The translations under genes and the position numbers were made by a program. Shown one piece after another: positions 3,667 to 62,695 of a stretch of DNA of 64,000 nucleotides; the stretch's first letter is position 1, and every line of letters begins with the position of its first letter. Under the pieces are notes generated by a model. It saw nothing but the letters and a program-made list of their open reading frames with translations. It searched no databases and had not been told where the DNA came from. The stretch is from a virus: IMG/VR virus record IMGVR_UViG_3300045988_095676, positions 26,969 through 90,968 of that record. One strand, 5' to 3'.

Positions 3667-4323
3667 TCACTTCATTACTGTCCTTACCAACTTAGAAACA
3701 GCTTGTGTGATAGTCCACCTGATGTTAGCATTAACATTGATAGTCTGAGGAGTACCGTTTGCATCCAAGTTGATTACCTCCTTGTCTATTTCCAAGAACG
3801 GATCACCTGCTGTCTGGGTAATAACCGTATTAGCTGTCTGACCACCGGCGGCCGTCACCTTAAGAGTATTTACCAGATCATTTACATCAGCGTTTTCTGG
3901 AATACCGGAGAATACGATACTGAAAGCAAATCCCCCTGTTGCACCAGGGTCGTCGGCAATAACAGCACCGTTATTGGTAGCCTTGCCTGCTGCCTGATAG
4001 GAGGCTGGTATTTCCAGCGTCAGAGGATGAGACTCGTCTGGAGTTAAGGAGAACGTTAATTTAGTTGAGTTACTTGTGCCGTTGATTGTTACAGTACCAC
4101 CTTCTTTCCCTACAGATGCAGTAGGATCTATTTTTACGAACTCAGCTACCGGAGCTTGGTTTATGGTAGCACTTTTCTTAACATCCCCGGATTCGGCACC
4201 AAATTCTACTTGTAACGTACGCTGTACACGACCTTCGTATTTTTCACCTGATACGGTAACTGCCTGATCACCGTCACCTGATCCCGGATTGAAGGTTACA
4301 AAACCTATTTTCATTTCTGCCAT
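3667..4323 (-). CDS. hypothetical T/N/G-rich beta-type protein, possibly Ig-like virion or surface protein
   Basis: 218-aa minus-strand ORF isolated in a plus-strand block, with its own terminator and an AT-rich upstream region. Composition typical of Ig-like decoration or fibre proteins. Confidence 0.4.
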   Translation of the reverse strand: MAEMKIGFVTFNPGSGDGDQAVTVSGEKYEGRVQRTLQVEFGAESGDVKKSATINQAPVAEFVKIDPTASVGKEGGTVTINGTSNSTKLTFSLTPDESHPLTLEIPASYQAAGKATNNGAVIADDPGATGGFAFSIVFSGIPENADVNDLVNTLKVTAAGGQTANTVITQTAGDPFLEIDKEVINLDANGTPQTINVNANIRWTITQAVSKLVRTVMK

Positions 4324-4567
4324 GATATAAATGATTTTTTTAGTTAATTAATATCTTGACAAATATAGTTTTATTATACGGAAATCCTATTATTGATCTT
4401 CATAAATTAAAACTATCTTTATCCCAAAATAAGACAATTATGAGAAGAAGATTTTTTAACAAAATAGGGGGGGGTATTTACCTACTGATAATTTTATAGT
4501 TTTTGATAAATCTGTATCAGATCCGGCTAATATAACAATAAGCGAAGACAGTGATTTTTTAAATAGG

Positions 4568-5554
4568 TTGATTACAAGTGGCTTTTATAGAGTTCTTTGC
4601 AAGAGCGCTATGGGAGGAGGAGAGGTTTTTGTATGTAGGTTGAAGGAAGACAACAGCAATTTGTATCTTGATGGTAGTCAGGCTAATCTTACCGGACCAG
4701 AAGGTGATGTGATGGTCGTTTTCTTAGAATTTTGGTATAAATGGTATAAGGTGGATGATAATAGATTTCTTTATCATTTTGCTGATCATGATATTGACGG
4801 CACTTACATCCATGTCCCGGAATCTCTTGTTGGAGCATATAAAGGATATGTATCTTTGAATGGATTATATAGCTGGAGTGGTGTTAGTCCTACAACTTCA
4901 AAATCATTCAACGATTTTGAAGGTTATGCGAAAGCGCGTGGTACCGGGTTTCAGATGATAGATTTTCAACAACATTGCGTGATTGCTATGATGTTGTATG
5001 CTAAGTACAAAACACGTAATATTCAATCTGTATTAGGATTAGGTGGCGCAAATAATAATCCGGCTACAACAACGGGAAGCAGCAACGCAACCGGCGGTGC
5101 GGATACCAAAAACGAAAGTTCAAAGTACGTTTGCGGCTTAGGTTTGGAAGGGGTTTTTGGTGGTATCTATGAATGGGTTGAAGGTGTAGAAATCAACAAC
5201 CGAGTTTGGAAAATCACCGACCCAGACGGATCGACTCGCAATGTGAACGCCGGAACTTCCAATGGCTGGATAACGAATATCGCAGCGGAAAACGGTCCGT
5301 TTTTCGATGTGGTGCCGACAAATGTTGGCGGTAACGATTCCATGCATTATTCAGATTACTATAGTCAGACATCGAGCAACTCCATTGTTTTGGCGCGCTC
5401 CTATAGCGGCTCGGATACGAGTAGTGGCGTGGCGTATGCGTATGCGTCTCGCAACGCGTTGAGCGCGAGTTCGTACTTCGGTTCGCGTCTTGCTTTCCGT
5501 GGAATCATATCCGAGGTGGCTCCAGAGCAGTTCAAAAAATTACCTGTATTATAA
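4568..5554 (+). CDS. putative receptor-binding / tail-fibre-like protein
   Basis: 328 aa. The G/S/T/N-rich C-terminal half ends ...ASRNALSASSYFGSRLAFRG, reminiscent of the Fibrobacter-succinogenes-major-paralogous (FISUMP) domain. The C-terminal 200 nt are markedly GC-rich. Confidence 0.3.
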   Translation: MITSGFYRVLCKSAMGGGEVFVCRLKEDNSNLYLDGSQANLTGPEGDVMVVFLEFWYKWYKVDDNRFLYHFADHDIDGTYIHVPESLVGAYKGYVSLNGLYSWSGVSPTTSKSFNDFEGYAKARGTGFQMIDFQQHCVIAMMLYAKYKTRNIQSVLGLGGANNNPATTTGSSNATGGADTKNESSKYVCGLGLEGVFGGIYEWVEGVEINNRVWKITDPDGSTRNVNAGTSNGWITNIAAENGPFFDVVPTNVGGNDSMHYSDYYSQTSSNSIVLARSYSGSDTSSGVAYAYASRNALSASSYFGSRLAFRGIISEVAPEQFKKLPVL

Positions 5555-6057: not shown

Positions 6058-6936
6058 ATGGTACAAGATATTGATATAAAATCCAAACGAATATTATTGT
6101 TTGATTTTGATGGAACGCTTATAGAAACCGCTTCTGGGAATACGTTCGCTACAGACTTGACAGATATGAGGATTAAGATGGATGTGGTGAATAAGGCTCT
6201 TGACCTCATGCAGGAGAACGGTGTTAAGGTATTTGCTATCGTAAGCAATCAAGGAGGAGTAGAAGCTGGGTTTGTTTCTGGAGCTGATATTGAAGCTAAG
6301 ATAGAATACGTACTGAGGTCCGTACATGATCTGGCGGTAAAGAGAGGTATAAGAGGCGTCCTATATGAAAAAAGGTTGTGTTATTCAAATGACGAACAAA
6401 ATCCGATGAGGAAGCCTAATACGGGCATGATTGATGATATTCTTATGAAGTGTAAAGACACGGTAATGCGCGGTATGAACTTCAGTCAACTTAAGGGATG
6501 TTCGTTGATGGTCGGGGACGCCAGTGGTCTGCCAGGGCAGTTCTCTGATTCGGATAAGGTATGTGCCTATAATTCCGGTATTAACTATATGGATATTACT
6601 ACATTTTTGGATAAAGATCTTGATTTAGAATATGTATTGTCCAAAGAACATACAAGTGAAGGAATAGTTATTCTAAACAACGATCATATATATATCCTTG
6701 AAAATCCATATGGGGTTGGTCTTAATATAAAAATCACTTTAAAAGATTTTTATAAGATTGAAACCGATGATGGAAAAACTGCAACCGTAGATGATGTGCT
6801 GAATATAAGGATTGATAAAGATCAGAATTTTAATTCATATAGTGATGTTATAAAAATAGAAACATTAAAAGACGGTAGTATCAAATATACAAGCTTATAT
6901 CATGAAAGTAAAGAAAACAGCGATAGTTTATCATAA
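6058..6936 (+). CDS. HAD-superfamily (subfamily IIIA) phosphatase, polynucleotide 3'-phosphatase / GmhB-like
   Basis: Motif I LLFDFDGTLIET (DxDGT), motif II IVSNQGG, motif III RKPNTGM, motif IV MVGDASG..SDSD. Start moved to the ATG at 6058 immediately after the upstream stop. Confidence 0.7.
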   Translation: MVQDIDIKSKRILLFDFDGTLIETASGNTFATDLTDMRIKMDVVNKALDLMQENGVKVFAIVSNQGGVEAGFVSGADIEAKIEYVLRSVHDLAVKRGIRGVLYEKRLCYSNDEQNPMRKPNTGMIDDILMKCKDTVMRGMNFSQLKGCSLMVGDASGLPGQFSDSDKVCAYNSGINYMDITTFLDKDLDLEYVLSKEHTSEGIVILNNDHIYILENPYGVGLNIKITLKDFYKIETDDGKTATVDDVLNIRIDKDQNFNSYSDVIKIETLKDGSIKYTSLYHESKENSDSLS

Positions 6937-26903: not shown

Positions 26904-27371
26904 ATGGGATTAACCTATAAAACAAAATTGCTTATGAAAACATTAGAACAACTTAAAGAATTAACATCAAAATGTTTAGACGGTAGAGATTTTAACAGAC
27001 TGGCTAAATTTGTTCCATATAGCATGATAAAGGATTTCGGTATGGAGCCGAATGAAGAATATGACAACGAGGAAAAGTGGAACAGTACTGTAGTTGAATT
27101 TACCAGAGAAAATGTCCTGAAACAGCTTGAAGAAGACGTAAGATTCGGTTTTGAAAAGGCATTAAATCAGAGAGGAATATCAGCCAGTTTGATGTTTGAA
27201 TGTGTGATGATGTGGAACTACATTCTGGAAGAAGGTCTTGAAGGCTGGGGTGAGGATGATTATGCATTTTATGGACTCCCTCTATTTAAAGCTACGGCTG
27301 TAAAATATGGATGGGACAATCCGATAGGGGAAGACAGCGGGAGAGAAAGAAAATATGATTCACAATATTAA
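26904..27371 (+). CDS. hypothetical protein (155 aa)
   Basis: ORF track. Confidence 0.4.
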   Translation: MGLTYKTKLLMKTLEQLKELTSKCLDGRDFNRLAKFVPYSMIKDFGMEPNEEYDNEEKWNSTVVEFTRENVLKQLEEDVRFGFEKALNQRGISASLMFECVMMWNYILEEGLEGWGEDDYAFYGLPLFKATAVKYGWDNPIGEDSGRERKYDSQY

Positions 27372-47416: not shown

Positions 47417-48827
47417 ACTTAGACCTTACCAAAAAGAGGCAGTAGATGCCGGGCTTAAGTTCCTTACAGGAAGATCTAAGAAGCCTGGCATAGAAGTCTT
47501 GCCGTGTGCAGCGGGGAAGTCTTTGATAATTAGCAAGATAGCTCATGAATTAAAAAGACCTATCCTTGTATTACAGCCATCTAAAGAGATTCTGGAGCAG
47601 AATTATGCGAAGGCTGTATCATTCGGTTCTAAACCTACCATATATTCTGCTTCATGTAAAAAAAAAGAGTTATCGGCTATGACTTATGCTACACTTAAAA
47701 GCATAAAGAAAGACGTAGCAAGGTTGAAAGATATAGGGATAGACACATTATTGATAGATGAGGTGCATAGCGGGTATTCTCCTGAAGAAGGTTCTGAATT
47801 TATGGAGTTTATGAACAGGTTCCCAGAGGCGAAGGTGCTGGGCTTCACCGCCACGCCCTGCCGCCTCCGGACCTACAGCTCCATGCTGGAAGGAAACTAC
47901 AGCAAACTTAATATGCTGACGAAAGACGAGCATAATTTCTTTAAGAAGATAGTTCATGTGACTCAAATACAAGAGCTAACTTCTCAGGGATTTTGGTGCC
48001 CTCTTAAGTACGAACGATGGTCGTTTGATGAATCGGCTCTGATATTAAACAGTACCGGAGCCGAATATACCAACGAATCTATTAAAGAAAGCATCGTACG
48101 AAACGGCTTAAACAACTCTATCTACAAGCGCCTTCTTCAACTTATGAACGAGCGTAAAGCTATTTTGGTTTGCATGGATTCTATCGAATCATGTAATAGA
48201 ATATCAGAGTTCATGAATGCCAGGATGGGAGCCATAACCGGTGTCGTAACATCGCTAACAACCAAAAAGAAAAGAGAGCAAATCATATCCGATTTCAAAG
48301 AAGGTAAGTTGAAGGTGGTTTTTAATTATTCAACGCTTGCTACCGGATTTGATTTTCCCGAACTTGATTGTGTGATGTTTGGACGACCAACATTCTCATA
48401 TTCAACATATTACCAGGTGCTCGGCAGGTGCGTCCGCATCCATCCTGACAAGAAAGAGGCGCTGATAGTTGACTGCTGCGACAACATGAGGCGCTTTGGT
48501 CGGATAGAAGACCTGACAATCGAGCAATTCCCTTCTAAGGGCTGGTGTATGTTTGCCGGCGATCAACTTCTGTCTAATATAAGGATGGGTGATATTATTA
48601 CCAAAGACGAGATCCTTCGTCGGGCAGCCTCGATTAAATCTGTGAATGGAGATGGTAGGAGAGAAGACGATCTTGACAGTATAATAATGTGGTTTGGAAA
48701 ATATGAAGGAATTAGATTCAAGGACATACCGGTGTCGTATTTTAGGTTCTTGGCTGAGAATATGGCGGTAAAACCGGGAGATAGGAAAGAAAAGATTATC
48801 GAATATTATAATAGGATAAAAGCATGA
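47406..48827 (+). CDS. SF2 DEAD/DEAH-box-type helicase
   Basis: Motif I PCAAGKS; motif II LIDEVHSG; motif III FTATP; motif VI QVLGRCVRI. Confidence 0.65.
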   Translation: MGFELRPYQKEAVDAGLKFLTGRSKKPGIEVLPCAAGKSLIISKIAHELKRPILVLQPSKEILEQNYAKAVSFGSKPTIYSASCKKKELSAMTYATLKSIKKDVARLKDIGIDTLLIDEVHSGYSPEEGSEFMEFMNRFPEAKVLGFTATPCRLRTYSSMLEGNYSKLNMLTKDEHNFFKKIVHVTQIQELTSQGFWCPLKYERWSFDESALILNSTGAEYTNESIKESIVRNGLNNSIYKRLLQLMNERKAILVCMDSIESCNRISEFMNARMGAITGVVTSLTTKKKREQIISDFKEGKLKVVFNYSTLATGFDFPELDCVMFGRPTFSYSTYYQVLGRCVRIHPDKKEALIVDCCDNMRRFGRIEDLTIEQFPSKGWCMFAGDQLLSNIRMGDIITKDEILRRAASIKSVNGDGRREDDLDSIIMWFGKYEGIRFKDIPVSYFRFLAENMAVKPGDRKEKIIEYYNRIKA

Positions 48828-54511: not shown

Positions 54512-54558
54512 ACAACAATCCCCAACCATACAATAGGCGTACGGTTGGGGATTGTTGT
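54512..54558. terminator. perfect 15-bp hairpin at the strand switch (bidirectional terminator candidate)
   Basis: ACAACAATCCCCAACC-atacaataggcgtac-GGTTGGGGATTGTTGT between convergent genes. No clean T-run. Confidence 0.5.
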
Positions 54559-55115
54559 CATATCGTAAAATTAAGTGTTTTTTCTAATATCAGATATTCA
54601 GTATGAACTTTACTTCCGCCATCATTTATCAAGTCCAAATTAATATAAGCTGTATATGATACATGATGATCACCAGGAGCAAGACGTTTCATATCTGATA
54701 AGAACATAGAATTTAAACCTTGGCCAGACCATGATTCTGGATATGGCAAAGGTTTAAAGTCGGCGTCTGTACATCTTACAACCCAAGTAAGATTAGGATC
54801 TGCCCTAACTATTCTATCATGAGGTCCATCAATTACAAGATCTGGCATCTCATATTGGTAACTATCATAATTAAGGACAATAGGATCACCAAAGTTTACA
54901 CCGTATATAGCAGCAGGTGGAGTAAAGCTTGTTATTAAAAAGGTTCTATTAATCCTATTGGTTGTTCTTAGCGTAAACTCATCAGGTGCTATCACACTTA
55001 CTCTAAATCCATAATAAGGAGAGGTTGTTAAAGCAATAGCAAGAACCACCGAATCCTGTTCAAGCAATTCCTCTGTCGTATCAACCTGACTATCGATCTC
55101 TTGCCTATCTTCCAT
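54558..55115 (-). CDS. hypothetical protein. Its 5' part is probably separated by a frameshift at the C8/G8 tract and extends to an ATG at 55293
   Basis: 185-aa ORF. Removing one G from the G8 run at 55223-55230 fuses MRRRFENNAKLYEYKIVSDCIGG... in frame to MEDRQEID... Confidence 0.4.
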   Translation of the reverse strand: MEDRQEIDSQVDTTEELLEQDSVVLAIALTTSPYYGFRVSVIAPDEFTLRTTNRINRTFLITSFTPPAAIYGVNFGDPIVLNYDSYQYEMPDLVIDGPHDRIVRADPNLTWVVRCTDADFKPLPYPESWSGQGLNSMFLSDMKRLAPGDHHVSYTAYINLDLINDGGSKVHTEYLILEKTLNFTI

Positions 55116-55297
55116 TGGAACACCGCCTTGGACACTTATGGAATCCAGCCGTTCTTTTTTAGACAGAAAGATAAATTGCCCGCCCTGTGGAATGGTGCCT
55201 ACTTTCTTTCCTTCTACGATTACCCCCCCCTATACAATCGCTAACTATCTTATACTCATATAGTTTAGCATTATTTTCAAATCTTCTTCTCATAATT

Positions 55298-55525
55298 TCA
55301 TAAAATTAATTCGGTAAAGGGGCGGACATAACGTGGATTACTCCTTGTACTTGTATCCAAATGATCTCCTTGGATGTTTATATCATAATACCACGAATAG
55401 GTAAATTGTGTAGATTGAGTGGATGTCCACATTTTATTACTCATTATCGTACCTCCTACCATTAAAAGGCATTCGTTTATTTCATTCGCATACAATGATA
55501 TCAAAAAAAAACTCTCCGGCGCCAC
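55298..55525 (-). CDS. hypothetical protein (75 aa). Its 5' end overlaps the upstream gene across a T9 tract
   Basis: ORF track; overlaps 55482-56003 by 44 nt in another frame. Confidence 0.35.
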   Translation of the reverse strand: MAPESFFLISLYANEINECLLMVGGTIMSNKMWTSTQSTQFTYSWYYDINIQGDHLDTSTRSNPRYVRPFTELIL

Positions 55526-56003
55526 CTACATATCCATTTTGACCATTTTTAAATAAATAGCTATTAGCTTTATTAAAAGCGTAATTTTCATTACTGGTAT
55601 CATATTCAAGATACGCATTCTGATTTTCACGCCCCCAATAATCCTTTTTAACGGTCTTCATATAAGAACTATTTTGTGCAAATACATTGTCTACTCTTCC
55701 ATCCTTACCCCAACTAAATGTGCCAATATATTCGGTGGCTATAACAAAACACACTTTATCTACAAGAGCTATTCCATTGCATAGATCATTGGAATATCCT
55801 TTATTAGACCAATTTTCTTTTGTATATAATCCTCCATCTACATGTTGGATGTATATGCCTTTATTGATTATAAGCGAGGGATTTACCCCCATCCCTATTT
55901 GAAATCTTCGTCTCATGATTTTTGTTTGCAAGATAGCAATAATTGACAACATAAAAGAAACCGGTTCTCTATCATCTCTGACTGAGAACCGGTAAGAAAA
56001 CAA
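55482..56003 (-). CDS. hypothetical N/G/Y-rich protein (173 aa), structural or fibre-like composition
   Basis: ORF track; first gene downstream of the giant minus-strand gene. Confidence 0.4.
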   Translation of the reverse strand: MFSYRFSVRDDREPVSFMLSIIAILQTKIMRRRFQIGMGVNPSLIINKGIYIQHVDGGLYTKENWSNKGYSNDLCNGIALVDKVCFVIATEYIGTFSWGKDGRVDNVFAQNSSYMKTVKKDYWGRENQNAYLEYDTSNENYAFNKANSYLFKNGQNGYVGGAGEFFFDIIVCE

Positions 56004-56130
56004 TTTCAGAAAAAATTAAACCTACATAATCTTTCAAGTAAGAACAAAAAAACGTACAATCTACTCTTTGACGATGCTAATATAACATATTGGAATCATA
56101 CAAAAACAATGCAAGTCCGATATTCTTCGT

Positions 56131-59100
56131 CTATTTGTAACTAACGTCATCGTCTCCTTCCGAATCAGGAGTAGCGCCGATGAAGAACATCATTGACTTG
56201 TTGTTCGTCTGCTGCCACCAATTATAGGCGCGCGCTACGTCTTCCGGCGTCTTGATATTATACCATTGTTTGATAAACGTCTGTTTGGCGAGTTGCCTAA
56301 ATAACTTAGACTCTCCCTTGTATGTACCGGATGTTACTTTATCAAGTGAATAATTCCTAAGATCGGTAAGATCCTTCAGTTTTCGCCCCATAACAAACGG
56401 ATCGTTAATGATATCTACCACGTTAAGCTCCATAATAAACGGCATCTGTGAAGCTATTTCGTTTATGGTTCTGAATCCGACATAGGATCCAAATTGAGTA
56501 AGCCAACTTTCTTCGTTTTCATCATCATCACGCCATCCGGCAAGAAGCATAGATACGGCCTGCATGATAAGGAACGTGCCGGCATAGACACTGAGGCGTT
56601 TGAGATTAGTTTTTTCTACCTCATTCATATTGTCTTTATTTTCGTTCCAGGCATCTATGATGTTTTTCATACCAGACTCGGAAGCCAGGCTAAATGTTTT
56701 GGCTATCATATTCTTTAACGTAATTGACAACCCTTCCTCTTCTTGCATTGTCTGGAAATTGAAGCCACGTCTTTTCCACAGACGTTGAGCTGCCAGCACC
56801 AGCCAGCCTCGGTGGGCGGTCATGAACCTGGCTATCCAGTTGCGCGATGCGGCAGTTCGGTTTTCTTCATTCAAAGATCCGTTACATATCTGCGACAAGC
56901 TACGGACTTGATTCCTGGTTATAGCCATCTGGGTTTCAACTTCCTCAACAGTAACACCCGATCCCGGCTTTACAACCACCTTTCCATCCACGACGTCTAC
57001 CATACTCCATAAAGTACGATCTTTTAATGCGTTCCATTCTCTTTTTATGGTACTCTGTTCTTTATTGCGTTCTTTTTCCATCTTGAAATCTTGGAACGTG
57101 TAGAACCGGCCTTTGTAATAACGAACATTGTCCATAGTAGCAATCATAACCTGCGGATCAAGAGGGTAGTTCAGGATTTCCATAAAAGCATACATAGGCG
57201 AACGCATTAAGGTCCTGGCCGCTCTATTGTATCCGGCACCATACATACGATTTCGGATATTGAATATCCCCATTCTCTCACCTATGACATATAATTTGCT
57301 TTTCCTATCTATGTCTCCGGTTTCTGCTATACAAGATGGCGCAAGACGGGAAAACTCAGCCGATGCGTATTTAAGGGAATCTTTGCTTATATACTGTCCT
57401 ACGGCTGATTCCATGATGAGGTTGATATGGCCTGTCAGGGCGCCGGTAGCTGCCACAAACGGAGACAGTGCCAAGTTCATAACCGACATAAATCTTTCAA
57501 CAGCCATCATAATTCTTGTAAGGTCTACCGTATATCCTCCGATGTTCACCGTAAGTTTTTTGGTGTTCATCCTAATGCCATAATAATGATCGTTGAAGAA
57601 GTCCCTGAACATCTGATATGCTTGGGTTGCTTCAGCCTTTTTACCACCTTCAAATTGTTTATTTAGTAACATCTGCTCCAGTCCTTGGGCAAGCTCTATA
57701 GACTTCTGCTTTTCGTTGTATAACGATGATTGCATCATAAGCATCGAATAAGAGTAGCCAAAATCGTGAGATACATCATCTTGGTTCTCCAATTCATATA
57801 TGTAGTATTTAGGTATAGACCTAAGCCTGTCTTCTGGATCATACACTTCTCCTTGCCTGGTCTTACCATATAGAGAATCGTCTACTCTGTCCAGGCACAG
57901 ATCTGATACAAAATTACGAACCGTATTTTTGAAGTTAATACCCAATCCTTCTACACGTTCTATATCTTGTTTGGATATCTGTGGAATAGCATACAGGTTC
58001 GGGCTCTGCTCTTTGTATAGATCAAGGGATTGTCTTTTTATTTCCTTGAGTTTTTGAATCATATTCCACTGCTCTACGTTTTTAGTAGCAACCTCATTAC
58101 CGTCAGCATCATACTTGATACCAAAGTCATTGAAATACGATTCGTCACGATACAGGCTTTTCTTAGGCATTCGATGACCATACCCATGATCTTTTACATA
58201 ATCAGGATTACGACCGCTATTTTCGGCTTCAGATTCAGCCACCCATGCCCTTGCAGGGTCGAAAGACAAGTACGATATGTCCATGCCATAATCTTGGGTG
58301 GATGTACCGTTTTGTACGTCCTTAACCATTTGCGCCACATCTATCTCACCTCGACCGATTTTGTCGATCATAGCTGCATATCCGGTAGGCGCCATGCGTT
58401 TATAGTACGAAAAAACCTGGCTTCTGGCAAATTCATTAACAATAGCATTAGCTTCTTCTACGCCCTCTTCTCTTGTATTATTTAAAAATAAGCTGGCCAT
58501 CTTAGCATTAACAGCATTCCTGAAATCTCTACCGTCTAATTCTTTGCTTATACCAAGCTTTTCTGACAGGTAGTTGGTTTCAGATACGGTAAACAGATAT
58601 CGGTTATCAGCAGCCTTAAACAGCTTATCCCTTAAAGCCTGAATCCTTTTTGCTTTCTTCGCCGTAGTATGACGTTGTACGAACTTCCATTCCACTTCCT
58701 TGGAGTCAGCAAGAGCATTTAAATAAGACTGATTTACTTCGTTTTCAGCCTTACTGCTTTTAGTAAGGTACTTATCAATATCTTCAAGACCCACCATCTT
58801 AGCATAATCTATCAAAATAGCGTAATCGGCTTCAATAGCTTCAGATGCGGCCCTAAAAGCATCTCTTTCGGATGAGGTAAATGTCGCTTCGTTAATTTCT
58901 CCGATATCAGCCACATCGCGATTGTTTCCGATTATTTCCTTGATAATAGCCTTATTTTTTTCTATATCTTTCACAATAGAATCCACGTCAGTCGCATCTC
59001 TATCACTTGTCGTAGAACTAATGATATCATGCGCCATTTTAAGATACGAAGCCTTGTTATTTGATTCGGTACGTGCCGACTGTTCTGATTCTACATCATT

Positions 59101-62100
59101 CCAAAACCGATCGTTGAATGACAGGTGACCTCCCAACATAAGTGTCTTCAGCGCAGCTTCTCCTCCAGACTCGCTCTGAATCGTTCTTAATTTTTGCAAA
59201 AACGATTCTGATACGGCATTAGTGGCATTATTTGATTCCTTTCTCCAAACTTCATTTATAGCTTGTATTTCTTTGGCCATCTTAAGTTGGTCGCCGGTTT
59301 TTTCCACTCTCCTGGTTCCTACATATATGTATTCTGAAGCTGCTTCCTTACGTTGTTTACGAAGCAGTCCTTCTTCTTCGTAATTGCTGCTTTTAAAATA
59401 GGCAACCTCATCAAAATTACCACCGCTATCAATAAAAGGCTGCCTCAATATCCGTTTTTGCCGGGATAGGGCATTAAGATATTCTTTGGTTGTTTGAGAA
59501 ACCGGATACCCTAATTCTTCTTCAGCCTTTTTGTATATGGATTCCATTCTTGTGGCATAACTTTCGCTAAATTCCAATTCCGAATTTTCAGCATCCCACT
59601 TTTCCATCTGCTCTGTATAGATCTTTTCCTGCTCGATGGTAAAAATATCGGTATTAACCCTATCAGACGATGGTTTGAATTTAGCGTTTTCAGTAACCGT
59701 ATTTCCATCCTTGTCAACTACTTCTCTTTTAAATACGTAATTACGGTTATTGTCAACCACATCACCAATTTCTTCTTCTGATATCTCTATGTTCATGGCA
59801 GTCGCAAACGCTCGCATCTGCGCCAGCTTCTTATTACGATCGTATTTAGCCATATCAAGAGCACTACGAAGGTAATTAGAAGTTTTGCCGTCTACTTTCT
59901 GAAGCAGTTTTTCAAATTCAGATTTGTTAAAACCATGCTTTTTCGCATATGCCAGGAAATCGGATATGGCGGGCTGGGCATTCACCATCGCATTGTAATT
60001 GTCTTTGGCAATCATAGCTCCAAGAGCGTTATTGAACGGACTGGAAGAATGCTCTAATATACCGAACCACCTACTTATCCAAGAAACATCGTGTTGAACC
60101 TTGTCGAAAAATTCTTTTACTCTCTTTACCTTATCTGCCGGCACATGAAGTTCGTTCATTAACTTATCAAGCAACGTACTTTCATCAAGGTCTTGTACTG
60201 ATTTAATATCAGACTGAATACCATTGATGTCGGCAATGACGGTATTGATCCTATTTGTATAATCCTGCTTTTCACGTTCATCAAATTCGGTACTTCTGTT
60301 ACGGATATATCCTCGAAGATCGTTCATGATCGGAAGAACCTGATTGTTGATAATATCTACGTTCTTTCGATCATTGGTATTGAAGTGAAGCTTACCGTCT
60401 TTGGTATCACCATGAAGGATGGTGTTCACCACATTGCTTAAGTATCTGACCTGAGCTTCGGCTGTAGAGATCATGCTGTTCATGGCAGCCGCCATCTCAT
60501 TCTTGTCTATTTCGGTCTCTACCTTATTTATCTTATCTTCTATGGTCTTAAGCTGAGCAAGGGTCATAGACGTAGTTACAGCCCTATCAGAGCTTATCTG
60601 ACGTAAGTCTCTTAATGTTTTCCTTAATGCCAGGATCTTAGACTCAAGAAACTTGTTCTTGTTCATAGAAGAAAGGGAGTATAATGTAAAGTCATTATCC
60701 TTTAACAGAGAGGTGTCAAATCCTTTATCTATGTCAGTAATGGCAAGATCACGAATGTTTTTAATAACGTTATTCAAATCTTGTCTTTGGGTTGATAAAG
60801 CTGATTTAAGCCAGCTTACGATTCCAGAGAAAAGCTGCCGGACGCGCCCCAGGAAGGAGGTGGGCTCTACCGGCGCCTGTGCTGTGCCGGTCTGCATCTC
60901 CCTGGCGAGGATCTTTCCAAGAATTTCTCTCCTAACAGCATTATCAAGCTCAGCTCCTTCATATACTTTACCGTATGTATTATAATACTGACCTGCATAT
61001 TGGTTCCACTCTTCCGTACCTTCCACATCTTGCAGAACAGCCTCAACAGCATTCTGATCTCTGTATGCCTCTACAAGGAAGTGGGCTGTTTCTTCTACTA
61101 AATCAGATAAAGTAGCATCTTCACCAACTGCTATTACGTTATTGGCAATATCCGCCAATGCCTTAGCAGAAGGTTCGTGCCCGTATTTGGTTTGGTACTT
61201 CTCTATATAATCGGTCATACCTATGACACTAACGCCAAGAGTTTTCAGTATCTCGACAATAGAATTTCGTTGGTCACGTTCCTGCCTGCTATAATCTGAT
61301 ACGATCTTAGCTTTAGTATCAGCATAAAGATCGTTGTCTTCTAATATGAATGAAACTACAAGCGCATCAAAATGATCGTACTTGGCGTCCAATTCATTGT
61401 ATCTTCCTGACTTGAGATCGTTCTTTATCTGTTCCCTACTAATCCTTTCCGTTCCTCCGGTGGCGAGTCTCATAGTTACCTTACTGTTATCCAACGAGCT
61501 TATGGTTATCATACCTTGGTCGTTCATGGAAACATCGGAACCAAAATGATTACGGAGCTCGGTGTAGGATAAGGCTGAATTGAAAAGTCTAATTTGTCCT
61601 GTATGACCTTCTCCTGTAAGATAATAGCTTCTTGTTTCAGGATCGAATATCTTAGATCCGGACAAAAGACCTTTCTTTATAAGGTAGTTAATTATACCAC
61701 CTTTTGTTGATAAAGAAGTAGAAGCAGAAGCGGTCATGACCGGTATAAAAGATTTGGGATTATTAAGAACATACTTTCCAGCCTTGTAAGTAATGTCTGC
61801 CACGCCATCCACGGCAGATTCTTGAACGGTGCCGGATAAGAATCCTATTCTAATATCATTCCCGCCAGAGCGAAGAGCTTCTCCGTAATCTTCAAATAAT
61901 TGATTACGATCATTCATGAAAAACAAACGAGGCTCTCCGGTCTGATACGTTACACCCACAGGATTAGAATCTGTCTGTGGTAACTCCTCTGGGCTAAATA
62001 TCTTAAGACCGTCTTTTATAACCATATAATTAACACCCTTATCCTGTACCATAGATACGGGAGTAAAGTCCGAAGATATAGCATCTTGTAGATACTGCCC

Positions 62101-62553
62101 GGCGTCTATTCCCGGTCCTTCCGGTACGGAAATACTTGACGGGACCATAGCATCTACCAACATAATATTATCACCCAGATCTTGGCTGTAGAATCCAAAG
62201 CCTGATTCTTGGATTTCATAAGGTGCATCTGATTTTGACACAAGAACAGGGTTACTCATCTTAGAAGCCTTATCCAGCACCCTTTCTCTATAGGCTTCCG
62301 GAATAAGATCGATGTTGGATTTCACCTTATTGTAGGCCGGTTTATTAACAGGTACATTCCTTCTCCAGTCGCCAAAAGCCTTCAAGAACTTATTAGAAAA
62401 TACGGTTTTAAAAACAGTAGTAGCCCGTTCCCTGTTCTCCATAAGAGGAATAGATGCTATCTTATCAAACAACATAGACCTGTCCCCTGATCTGGTAGAG
62501 ACAGAAACAACTTTCTTTTTATTATCTCTTTTAATAATACACGTTGATGTCAT
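56131..62553 (-). CDS. giant 2140-aa virion-associated protein (tape-measure-like or ejected/polyvalent protein; function unknown)
   Basis: Uninterrupted 6.4-kb ORF. Largely alpha-helical, charge-rich composition with hydrophobic segments near the C-terminus (AVSMLLAGW, LALSPFVAATGAL). Flanked upstream by small minus-strand genes and downstream by small N/G-rich genes. Confidence 0.4.
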   Translation of the reverse strand: MTSTCIIKRDNKKKVVSVSTRSGDRSMLFDKIASIPLMENRERATTVFKTVFSNKFLKAFGDWRRNVPVNKPAYNKVKSNIDLIPEAYRERVLDKASKMSNPVLVSKSDAPYEIQESGFGFYSQDLGDNIMLVDAMVPSSISVPEGPGIDAGQYLQDAISSDFTPVSMVQDKGVNYMVIKDGLKIFSPEELPQTDSNPVGVTYQTGEPRLFFMNDRNQLFEDYGEALRSGGNDIRIGFLSGTVQESAVDGVADITYKAGKYVLNNPKSFIPVMTASASTSLSTKGGIINYLIKKGLLSGSKIFDPETRSYYLTGEGHTGQIRLFNSALSYTELRNHFGSDVSMNDQGMITISSLDNSKVTMRLATGGTERISREQIKNDLKSGRYNELDAKYDHFDALVVSFILEDNDLYADTKAKIVSDYSRQERDQRNSIVEILKTLGVSVIGMTDYIEKYQTKYGHEPSAKALADIANNVIAVGEDATLSDLVEETAHFLVEAYRDQNAVEAVLQDVEGTEEWNQYAGQYYNTYGKVYEGAELDNAVRREILGKILAREMQTGTAQAPVEPTSFLGRVRQLFSGIVSWLKSALSTQRQDLNNVIKNIRDLAITDIDKGFDTSLLKDNDFTLYSLSSMNKNKFLESKILALRKTLRDLRQISSDRAVTTSMTLAQLKTIEDKINKVETEIDKNEMAAAMNSMISTAEAQVRYLSNVVNTILHGDTKDGKLHFNTNDRKNVDIINNQVLPIMNDLRGYIRNRSTEFDEREKQDYTNRINTVIADINGIQSDIKSVQDLDESTLLDKLMNELHVPADKVKRVKEFFDKVQHDVSWISRWFGILEHSSSPFNNALGAMIAKDNYNAMVNAQPAISDFLAYAKKHGFNKSEFEKLLQKVDGKTSNYLRSALDMAKYDRNKKLAQMRAFATAMNIEISEEEIGDVVDNNRNYVFKREVVDKDGNTVTENAKFKPSSDRVNTDIFTIEQEKIYTEQMEKWDAENSELEFSESYATRMESIYKKAEEELGYPVSQTTKEYLNALSRQKRILRQPFIDSGGNFDEVAYFKSSNYEEEGLLRKQRKEAASEYIYVGTRRVEKTGDQLKMAKEIQAINEVWRKESNNATNAVSESFLQKLRTIQSESGGEAALKTLMLGGHLSFNDRFWNDVESEQSARTESNNKASYLKMAHDIISSTTSDRDATDVDSIVKDIEKNKAIIKEIIGNNRDVADIGEINEATFTSSERDAFRAASEAIEADYAILIDYAKMVGLEDIDKYLTKSSKAENEVNQSYLNALADSKEVEWKFVQRHTTAKKAKRIQALRDKLFKAADNRYLFTVSETNYLSEKLGISKELDGRDFRNAVNAKMASLFLNNTREEGVEEANAIVNEFARSQVFSYYKRMAPTGYAAMIDKIGRGEIDVAQMVKDVQNGTSTQDYGMDISYLSFDPARAWVAESEAENSGRNPDYVKDHGYGHRMPKKSLYRDESYFNDFGIKYDADGNEVATKNVEQWNMIQKLKEIKRQSLDLYKEQSPNLYAIPQISKQDIERVEGLGINFKNTVRNFVSDLCLDRVDDSLYGKTRQGEVYDPEDRLRSIPKYYIYELENQDDVSHDFGYSYSMLMMQSSLYNEKQKSIELAQGLEQMLLNKQFEGGKKAEATQAYQMFRDFFNDHYYGIRMNTKKLTVNIGGYTVDLTRIMMAVERFMSVMNLALSPFVAATGALTGHINLIMESAVGQYISKDSLKYASAEFSRLAPSCIAETGDIDRKSKLYVIGERMGIFNIRNRMYGAGYNRAARTLMRSPMYAFMEILNYPLDPQVMIATMDNVRYYKGRFYTFQDFKMEKERNKEQSTIKREWNALKDRTLWSMVDVVDGKVVVKPGSGVTVEEVETQMAITRNQVRSLSQICNGSLNEENRTAASRNWIARFMTAHRGWLVLAAQRLWKRRGFNFQTMQEEEGLSITLKNMIAKTFSLASESGMKNIIDAWNENKDNMNEVEKTNLKRLSVYAGTFLIMQAVSMLLAGWRDDDENEESWLTQFGSYVGFRTINEIASQMPFIMELNVVDIINDPFVMGRKLKDLTDLRNYSLDKVTSGTYKGESKLFRQLAKQTFIKQWYNIKTPEDVARAYNWWQQTNNKSMMFFIGATPDSEGDDDVSYK

Positions 62554-62643: not shown

Positions 62644-62695
62644 AAAAATAATATGAAAAAAAATTATAATCTGACGAAAAATCGTCAAGTTCAGC

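Follow-up and report, generated by a model that had tools for sequence, protein, structure and literature searches.

Length-variable poly-G tracts behind a shared MRRRF leader: candidate phase-variable genes in an epsilon crAss-like phage

Results

The sequence analysed here (the window) is a 64,000-nucleotide stretch of IMG/VR virus record IMGVR_UViG_3300045988_095676 (positions 26,969 to 90,968), and the subject of this report is a set of three of its genes, termed A, B, and C, which are the only genes of the window that begin with the residues MRRRF. All three are out of frame in the window, a state referred to below as OFF; the state in which the full-length protein is encoded is referred to as ON. 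The window belongs to an epsilon crAss-like phage having 96% identity to crAssE-Sib (OR575929) over the matched parts and the same gene order on both sides, and it falls within the proposed genus Epsilonunovirus. The taxonomy, including that genus, is used as proposed in PMC11054128, where Babkin et al. (2024) describe crAssE-Sib as a human-gut member of the epsilon crAss-like phages. The GC content of the window is 37.7%, somewhat above the value of roughly 35% given in an initial annotation made from the sequence of the window. The comparisons reported here cover consensus contigs from IMG/VR and from ENA metagenome assemblies.

Gene B (54558–55293, minus strand) consists of a MRRRFENNAKLYEYKIVSDC leader, a G tract, and a downstream frame of 223 codons that extends uninterrupted from 55229 as far as its stop codon at 54558. 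Translation from the ATG at 55293 (MRRRFENNAKLYEYKIVSDCIGG) meets a run of eight G's located 63 nt after the ATG (55223–55230, minus strand; C8 on the plus strand) and stops after 44 amino acids. This 44-codon leader open reading frame (ORF; 55159–55293, minus strand) is the sole ATG-frame product of the gene in the G8, or OFF, state, and the protein database contains the same OFF-type leader peptide (P0215). The tract encodes the conserved Gly-Gly-Gly of the segment '...C-I-G-G-G-V...', and the computed products are 244 amino acids long for G7 and 245 for G10 (...CIGGGVIVEG...). The initial annotation placed this junction correctly and proposed that one G fewer would join the two frames, which is right as arithmetic; a pure G7 allele was not seen among the relatives, whose natural in-frame alleles are only G10 or the interrupted 10-mers GGGGGAGGGG, GGGGGTGGGG, and GGGGGGGAGG.

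Gene C (4440–5554, plus strand), which the initial annotation had not described, carries the same type of MRRRF leader (MRRRFFNKIGGG...) and meets a G8 tract 27 nt after its ATG (4467–4474, plus strand). The gene is out of frame at G8 and in frame at G9 or G6, with a product of 371 amino acids at G9. Counting the window itself, the tract lengths among the collected alleles are G6 in one, G7 in two, G8 in eleven, G9 in three, G10 in three, and G11 in one, and thus the OFF length G8 is the commonest. Gene C is absent from crAssE-Sib.

Gene A (55298–55916, minus strand) starts at the ATG at 55916 with the leader MRRRFQI (MRRRFQIGMGVNPS...), enters a run of nine T's at the codons F-F-L (55503–55511, minus strand; A9 on the plus strand), and stops after 144 amino acids at 55482, leaving an orphan 3' part. 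The initial annotation had taken the first ORF from a TTG at 56003 rather than from this ATG. Its account of the junction itself is borne out in every particular: ORFs 55482–56003 and 55298–55525 share a 44-nt overlap across the T9 run, the second frame ends at the stop at 55298, and removal of one T, which gives the in-frame state T8, yields a continuous product of 205 amino acids (...GAGEFFLISLYANEINE...). That product has the same sequence as WOZ57324, the crAssE-Sib ortholog, an intact 205-amino-acid coding sequence (CDS) whose sole insertion or deletion relative to the window is T8 for T9. In a set of 102 flank-matched sequences, made up of the window and IMG/VR contigs, the run is T8 in 83, T7 in 10, and T9 in 9. 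T8 is found in 82% of the related contigs, and gene A is full length in 57 of the 85 contigs of relatives in which this was assessed.

The start of gene A bears a further tract-derived element that the initial annotation did not mention. Codons 8–10 read GGGATGGGGG (55886–55895, minus strand), an in-frame, interrupted version of the 10-nt G tract. In relatives the same position holds GGGATG followed by 4, 6, 8, or 9 G's (5 in the window), a pure G10, or GGGAGGGGGG; pure G10 translates as MRRRFQIGGGV, the sequence of the database protein P0123. A second G5 run lies inside the gene (55632–55636, minus strand) and is occasionally length-variant (G4 in 2, G5 in 95, G6 in 1, and G8 in 1). The leader G5 varies in 21% of contigs compared with 4% for this mid-gene G5. 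The database products P0156 and P0125 are frame-shifted at the mid-gene G5, and P0125 contains two compensating frameshifts, one near that run and one at the T run.

The 5' design common to the three genes is ATG-AGA-AGA-AGA-TTT (MRRRF), a short leader, ATA, and then about 9 to 10 G's for Gly-Gly-Gly. The two G8 runs lie 27 and 63 nt past an MRRRF start codon with the same ATA codon in front, and when the profiles of genes A and C are compared with hhalign only the 14-residue leader aligns, with no relatedness detected beyond it. The initial annotation regarded a C8/G8 tract as very unusual in this genome. By count this is only mildly so, since two G/C runs of at least 8 are seen in 64 kb and first-order Markov simulation gives a mean of 0.44 (P(≥2) = 0.08); it is the placement of the runs after MRRRF, rather than their number, that exceeds chance. 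Both G8 runs and the T9 run lie inside ORFs, 27 to 405 nt from an ATG, as do the tracts of contingency loci, for which a length of at least 7 G/C or at least 8–9 A/T and a change of frame with each single nucleotide are characteristic. GGG accounts for 16% of the Gly codons of the genome.

Tract length changes in single-nucleotide steps among near-identical genomes, in gene B from G8 to G10 with additional 12-mers, in gene C from G6 to G11, and also in the leader of gene A; the T run likewise differs in steps of one. Such a comparison of tract lengths among relatives had been suggested in the initial annotation. For gene B, IMG/VR alleles with the exact flank comprise 3 of G8, 11 of G9, and 10 of G10, and ENA metagenomes contribute 3 of G8, 7 of G9, 4 10-mers, and 2 12-mers. 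ON alleles amount to about 19 of 52 in IMG/VR and 4 of 16 in ENA, and OFF alleles are present in SPAdes contigs at 13–150x coverage. High-coverage ENA contigs of the phage include ERZ826146 NODE_38 (150x), ERZ827150 NODE_106 (39x), and ERZ809194 NODE_8 (14x). One contig with G8 (L075) and one with G10 (L092) are identical over 812 nt of flanking sequence, and pairs with at most two differences over those 812 positions mostly have unequal tract lengths. The length of the gene B tract is thus unrelated to flank divergence and uncoupled from phylogeny.

Full-length protein is obtained from one length class of the tract, and the downstream frame is nevertheless kept in OFF alleles. In all gene B OFF alleles with enough sequence this frame is open for 218 to 229 codons, and an identical-length body of 221 codons, free of nonsense mutations, is present in 33 of the 35 alleles gathered. 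The body of gene C, a 359-codon ORF, is kept in 18 of 22 alleles, most of them OFF, with a ratio of nonsynonymous to synonymous substitution (dN/dS) of 0.35 at a mean dS of 0.20. Such a pattern, a gene in use and yet largely OFF at the level of the consensus, is expected under phase variation. Synonymous diversity in gene B is 0.017, about 10-fold below the 0.13–0.43 of neighbouring genes (whose dN/dS is 0.03–0.14), which suggests that the gene B cassette spread recently by recombination and that the selection acting on it is relaxed or diversifying. The position following gene A is occupied by one of two unrelated cassettes sharing their first seven codons (MRRRFEN): the G-tract cassette of the window type in about 49 contigs and a tract-free type of 149 amino acids (MRRRFENI[NK]TVAG...) in about 35 of 84, including crAssE-Sib (L001 9525–9974).

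The relation between tract and reading frame was assessed over 162 unique MRRR-leader genes from the fetched loci. Those having an uninterrupted G run of at least 6 are OFF in 70 of 97 cases, and those lacking such a run in 6 of 65 (Fisher p = 3e-16). Numerous fragments of MRRRF genes, with lengths of 45, 140, and 221–227 amino acids, are found in the databases.

Other homopolymers of the same genomes served as controls for assembly error. The A9 run of the helicase gene (47658–47666) is A9 in 28 of 28 contigs, and the variation of the gene A T run (18 of 100) differs from this (0 of 28; Fisher p = 0.012). Non-modal lengths in the same contigs are found in 1 of 561 G4 runs and in about 1% of A/T5 and about 2.5% of A/T6 runs; a few variable A/T runs sit in intergenic regions just upstream of MRRRF genes. 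None of the other coding A8/A9 runs of the window interrupts its frame. Given the stability of the control homopolymers and the occurrence of G8 and G10 alleles with identical flanks, assembly error is unlikely. Because the helicase A9 run is invariant and the other coding A8/A9 runs leave their frames open, the T7 and T9 alleles of gene A are regarded as real, recurrent, and tolerated slippage mutants.

The design is also found in distant relatives. In one contig (L153) a gene B homolog with 40% protein identity occupies the same position after a 2138-amino-acid gene and has G10 in frame, and the adjacent gene A homolog carries GGGGGAGGGG. A different crAss-like phage having about 35% protein identity (L154, a Logan SRR33454295 contig, with a CrAss_Ring_2 gene nearby and a TnpB-like gene adjacent) contains C11 at 2894–2904, C10 at 6063–6072, and C9 at 6656–6664, and its G11 and G10 follow RRF-type leaders (MRRRF/MAVRRF), both out of frame. 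Since these tracts follow MRRRF/MAVRRF leaders, the combination of leader and tract reaches beyond the Epsilonunovirus group. Other distant homologs of gene B have the same ...SNC-x-G-G-[GST]-V... segment written in mixed codons and are plain continuous ORFs. The N-terminal beta domain of gene B is confidently modelled (predicted local distance difference test score, pLDDT, 92), and its first strand is made up of residues 12–17, which precede the tract. Because the distant homologs are continuous and the residues before the tract belong to the first strand of this predicted domain, the joined (ON) protein is regarded as the ancestral, functional form, and the tract as a codon-level overlay on conserved glycines.

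Clues to function come mainly from gene C, which matches TaqVP (5VF4), the variable protein of a diversity-generating retroelement (DGR), with an E value of 6.4e-5, and whose tblastn matches are to tail and tail-collar-fibre proteins of Bacteroides phages and to a gene of Bacteroides phage p00 with an annotated DGR variable repeat. A search of the 64-kb window for a repeat of the gene C 3' end and for reverse transcriptase motifs found no DGR template repeat and no convincing reverse transcriptase, so that within the 64 kb searched gene C lacks the cognate template repeat and nearby reverse transcriptase of a DGR target. For gene A, a PDB sequence search and a profile search returned no match, and the idea that its C-terminal WTSTQ...YVRPF segment might resemble DUF1566 or lectin-type domains was dropped. 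The gene B family has 32 representatives among 1.84 billion proteins. Its N-terminal module 'xYxYxVxSNCxGGxVxVDGxxxGT...GGVP' occurs twice in tandem in a 405-amino-acid database protein, and a C-terminal segment of about 50 amino acids matches 10–13 repeats in proteins of 1495 and 2498 amino acids; both are repeat-type beta modules (P0209, P0201, P0203). A virion-surface or adhesin role of the products of genes A, B, and C is plausible from their position and predicted fold; the tail or receptor-binding identity raised in the initial annotation is no more than a possibility for genes A and B.

Directly upstream of gene A lies a giant gene of 2140 amino acids (56131–62553, minus strand), which matches phrog_37651 'virion structural protein' (E 5e-76) and is annotated as 'structural protein' in crAssE-Sib. 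It is one ORF in the window and two overlapping CDS in the crAssE-Sib record (L001 16368–16468), the division being due to a 20-nt deletion relative to the window (at about 61725–61744) and not located at a homopolymer. Intergenic A/T runs that closely precede the giant gene and the MRRRF genes also differ in length among relatives, at 56046–56052, 56010–56015, 55919–55923, 4335–4341, and 62656–62663. The run at 56046 is A6 in 45 and A7 in 30 sequences, and A5/A6 variation occurs directly before the gene A ATG. Such variation might alter promoter spacing or the choice of start codon. One abundant database product (P0121) begins at an upstream ATG in another frame. A sigma-70 promoter scan returned fewer promoter-like sites than in shuffled sequences and is uninformative.

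An inverted repeat with 20-nt arms, 95% complementary, and a 7-nt loop (54512–54558) abuts the gene B stop between convergent genes. It is kept in crAssE-Sib with base changes on both arms and may be a terminator hairpin, though it has no T tail; a consensus terminator scan did not call it, nor any other terminator. The neighbour of gene C (3667–4323, minus strand) weakly matches a BACON domain and corresponds to a crAssE-Sib ortholog that bears the annotation 'glycosyl hydrolase family 5 protein'; the product of this neighbour may be another glycan-binding accessory protein. A scan of species-representative bacterial genomes found neither a prophage copy nor a clue to the host.

Discussion

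The arrangement described above is best accounted for, at a probability that we put at roughly two in three, by the G tracts of the three MRRRF genes being hypermutable poly-G contingency loci subject to slipped-strand phase variation, with the T9 run of gene A as a secondary slip site. Slipped-strand phase variation was one of three options offered in the initial annotation, and it fits the comparative data best. It is favoured because tract lengths differ in 1-nt steps, because the downstream ORFs remain open, and because interrupted alleles are in frame (GGGGGAGGGG, GGGGGTGGGG, GGGGGGGAGG, and GGGATGGGGG). Replication slippage, reversibility, and adaptive bet-hedging are components of this explanation that we infer from the comparison of tracts.

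The mechanism would operate as follows. Slipped-strand mispairing at replication would add or remove single G's, presumably during copying by the host replisome, since epsilon crAss-like phages encode no DNA polymerase of their own (PMC11054128). The leader would be joined to the protein body in one length class, which is G10 in genes A and B but G9 in gene C. Each gene would thereby alternate between an ON state that gives full-length protein and an OFF state that gives a peptide of 15–45 amino acids, and as many as 2^3 expression states could coexist in one phage population. An allele such as GGAGGTGGAG would be locked ON. In gene A of the window, whose G tract is interrupted in frame (GGGATGGGGG), T9 would represent a +1 slippage in the T8 run.

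Several observations weigh against phase variation, and some of them also speak for decay of dispensable accessory genes, in which frameshifts pile up at the most mutable sites under relaxed selection without any adaptive switching. Within a shallow clade the dN/dS of genes A and B is about 0.8–1.1, close to unity, and statistical support is weak (P ~0.04) for gene B being depleted of nonsense mutations. Tract-bearing genes are ON in 27 of 97 cases (28%), no different from the one third given by random frame (binomial p = 0.28), and the consensus data therefore show no selection for ON. Gene A is represented in the protein database by many deletion and truncation variants, which fit relaxed constraint as well as switching. 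The T run is missing from diverged gene A homologs, which read EFSL, EFLL, or EFQL where the lineage of the window reads EFFL, and since these homologs are without it the T8 run is evolutionarily young, limited to the sublineage of the window, and at most a secondary switch. The initial annotation had treated the two junctions alike; the G tract is instead an old, conserved design and the T8 run a feature of one sublineage. Searches of Pfam, PHROGs, and NCBIfam gave no match for genes A and B, the AlphaFold (AF2) model of gene A, built with 5 homologs, failed (pLDDT ~31), and gene B, although predicted to be all-beta, matches only generic Ig/FN3-type sandwiches. Most of the comparison contigs, moreover, come from a single IMG/VR dataset id (3300045988).

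For genes A and B, decay is the strongest competing explanation, and it gains further from the absence of gene C from crAssE-Sib and from the alternative cassette in the gene B slot. We nevertheless consider it unlikely. Decaying genes would not be expected to be essentially without other lesions downstream of the tract, as gene B (33 of 35) and gene C (18 of 22, dN/dS 0.35) are, nor to retain tract and leader both in homologs with 40% protein identity and in another type of crAss-like phage; the GGG-GGG-GGG codons are maintained despite codon bias, and G8 and G10 on identical flanks indicate very fast change in both directions. Errors of sequencing or assembly, with the real genomes all in frame, would explain why all three MRRRF genes of one window are broken, and these genomes offer no same-length control for poly-G of 8–10 elsewhere; the coverage of some comparison contigs is also as low as 1–3x. 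The proposal of homopolymer error nonetheless fares worst among the explanations. The helicase A9, the G4, and the A/T5–6 runs are stable, no other coding A8/A9 run of the window breaks its frame, the leader G5 of gene A varies far more often than the G5 inside the same gene, and errors of -1 and -2 would be needed in about 60–75% of assemblies from two independent collections, including contigs at 13–150x. Sequencing error is accordingly improbable as a general cause across the contigs, a statement that does not extend to the single window.

Programmed recoding, by which ribosomal frameshifting or RNA polymerase slippage would yield a short and a long isoform in the manner of the tail chaperones G/GT, was the remaining option of the initial annotation and is very improbable here. 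Runs of at least nine A/T are sites of transcriptional slippage in bacteria, and RNA polymerase slippage on the U9 of the gene A transcript could partly rescue the gene; the short leader products are also conserved in sequence. Recoding signals would, however, be of fixed length, and the tract ranges from 6 to 12, requiring a shift of +1, -1, or 0 depending on the genome. In-frame and interrupted in-frame alleles are common, the distant homologs are plain continuous ORFs, and the 100 nt past each tract fold no better than shuffled sequences (z -1.72, -0.24, and -0.26), leaving no indication of a stable downstream RNA structure. Stop-codon recoding was considered separately and rejected; the breaks are changes of frame with no in-frame stops, and the 2140-amino-acid neighbour is open in the standard code.

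If the G tracts are indeed phase-variable, a wider proposal is that epsilon crAss-like phages, together with one or more distant crAss-like phages, have a 'phasome' of accessory virion-surface or adhesin genes, each carrying a portable on/off cassette of MRRRF leader and poly-G. Independent switching would generate virion types in many combinations, matched to the phase-variable capsules of their Bacteroidales hosts, and one member or more would have the lectin-type fold on which DGRs act in other gut phages. This extension is tentative, and we hold it to be somewhat less probable than its negation. In the human gut, crAss-like phages count among the viruses of highest abundance, and they coexist over years with hosts whose surface is phase-variable. 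A stochastic on/off switch on accessory proteins would, if true, be a simple account of this stable coexistence and of a mixed or shifting host range. A practical consequence concerns annotation: automated pipelines split or truncate MRRRF tract genes, and given the resulting fragments in databases, frameshifts of this kind in gut viromes should be neither 'corrected' nor dismissed as errors.

Comparison with known systems

The closest parallel is provided by the Campylobacter phages of Fletchervirus, for which hypermutable tracts of 7–11 G's in receptor-binding protein genes have been reported, according to the accounts of that work in later papers (Sorensen 2021, Cell Rep 35:109214; cited in PMC12633550 and PMC12823448). 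The two systems share G tracts inside genes, frame switching by a single G, several such tracts per genome, and the expectation of mixed phage populations. They differ in that the window derives from an epsilon crAss-like phage of the human gut with presumably Bacteroidales hosts and other replication machinery, and in that its tracts have a fixed position after a common MRRRF leader in three otherwise unrelated proteins. Receptor binding and switching have both been shown experimentally for Fletchervirus, whereas for the crAss-like window we infer both.

Homopolymeric simple sequence repeats (SSRs) have also been proposed as contingency loci in coliphages T2/T4 and others (Gomez, Barrick and Waters 2025, bioRxiv; PMC12633550). 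Reversible homopolymer frameshifts as a form of bet-hedging are common to that proposal and ours, and the T8/T9 run of gene A resembles the A/T-type SSRs of at least 6 nt. The coliphage SSRs are mostly short A/T runs spread over many gene classes and under-represented in tail fibres (PMC12633550), whereas the tracts described here are long G runs in an AT-rich genome and confined to one leader-defined gene family. In the polyG/polyC loci of Campylobacter, Neisseria, and Haemophilus the tracts likewise lie near the 5' end, set ON or OFF by frame, include interrupted 'locked' alleles, and have lengths unrelated to strain phylogeny; the present genes differ in being virus-encoded and known from consensus sequences alone.

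A different route to diversity is taken by the DGR-associated, C-type-lectin-fold proteins of Bacteroides phages, which gene C resembles through TaqVP (5VF4) and the p00 gene and to which genes A and B have no similarity. The receptor-binding protein of crAssE-Sib is itself a DGR target (PMC11054128). Unlike DGR systems, which diversify by mutagenic retrohoming, the tract genes would diversify by frame switching. The words 'frameshift' and 'homopolymer' are absent from the paper describing the phage group (PMC11054128), and in the searchable library no paper was found that contains both 'crAss-like' and 'homopolymeric' or that links crAss-like phages to such tracts. The type of device is thus known from Campylobacter phages, and what is new here is the phage group in which it is found, together with a common leader-plus-tract cassette placed on three unrelated proteins.

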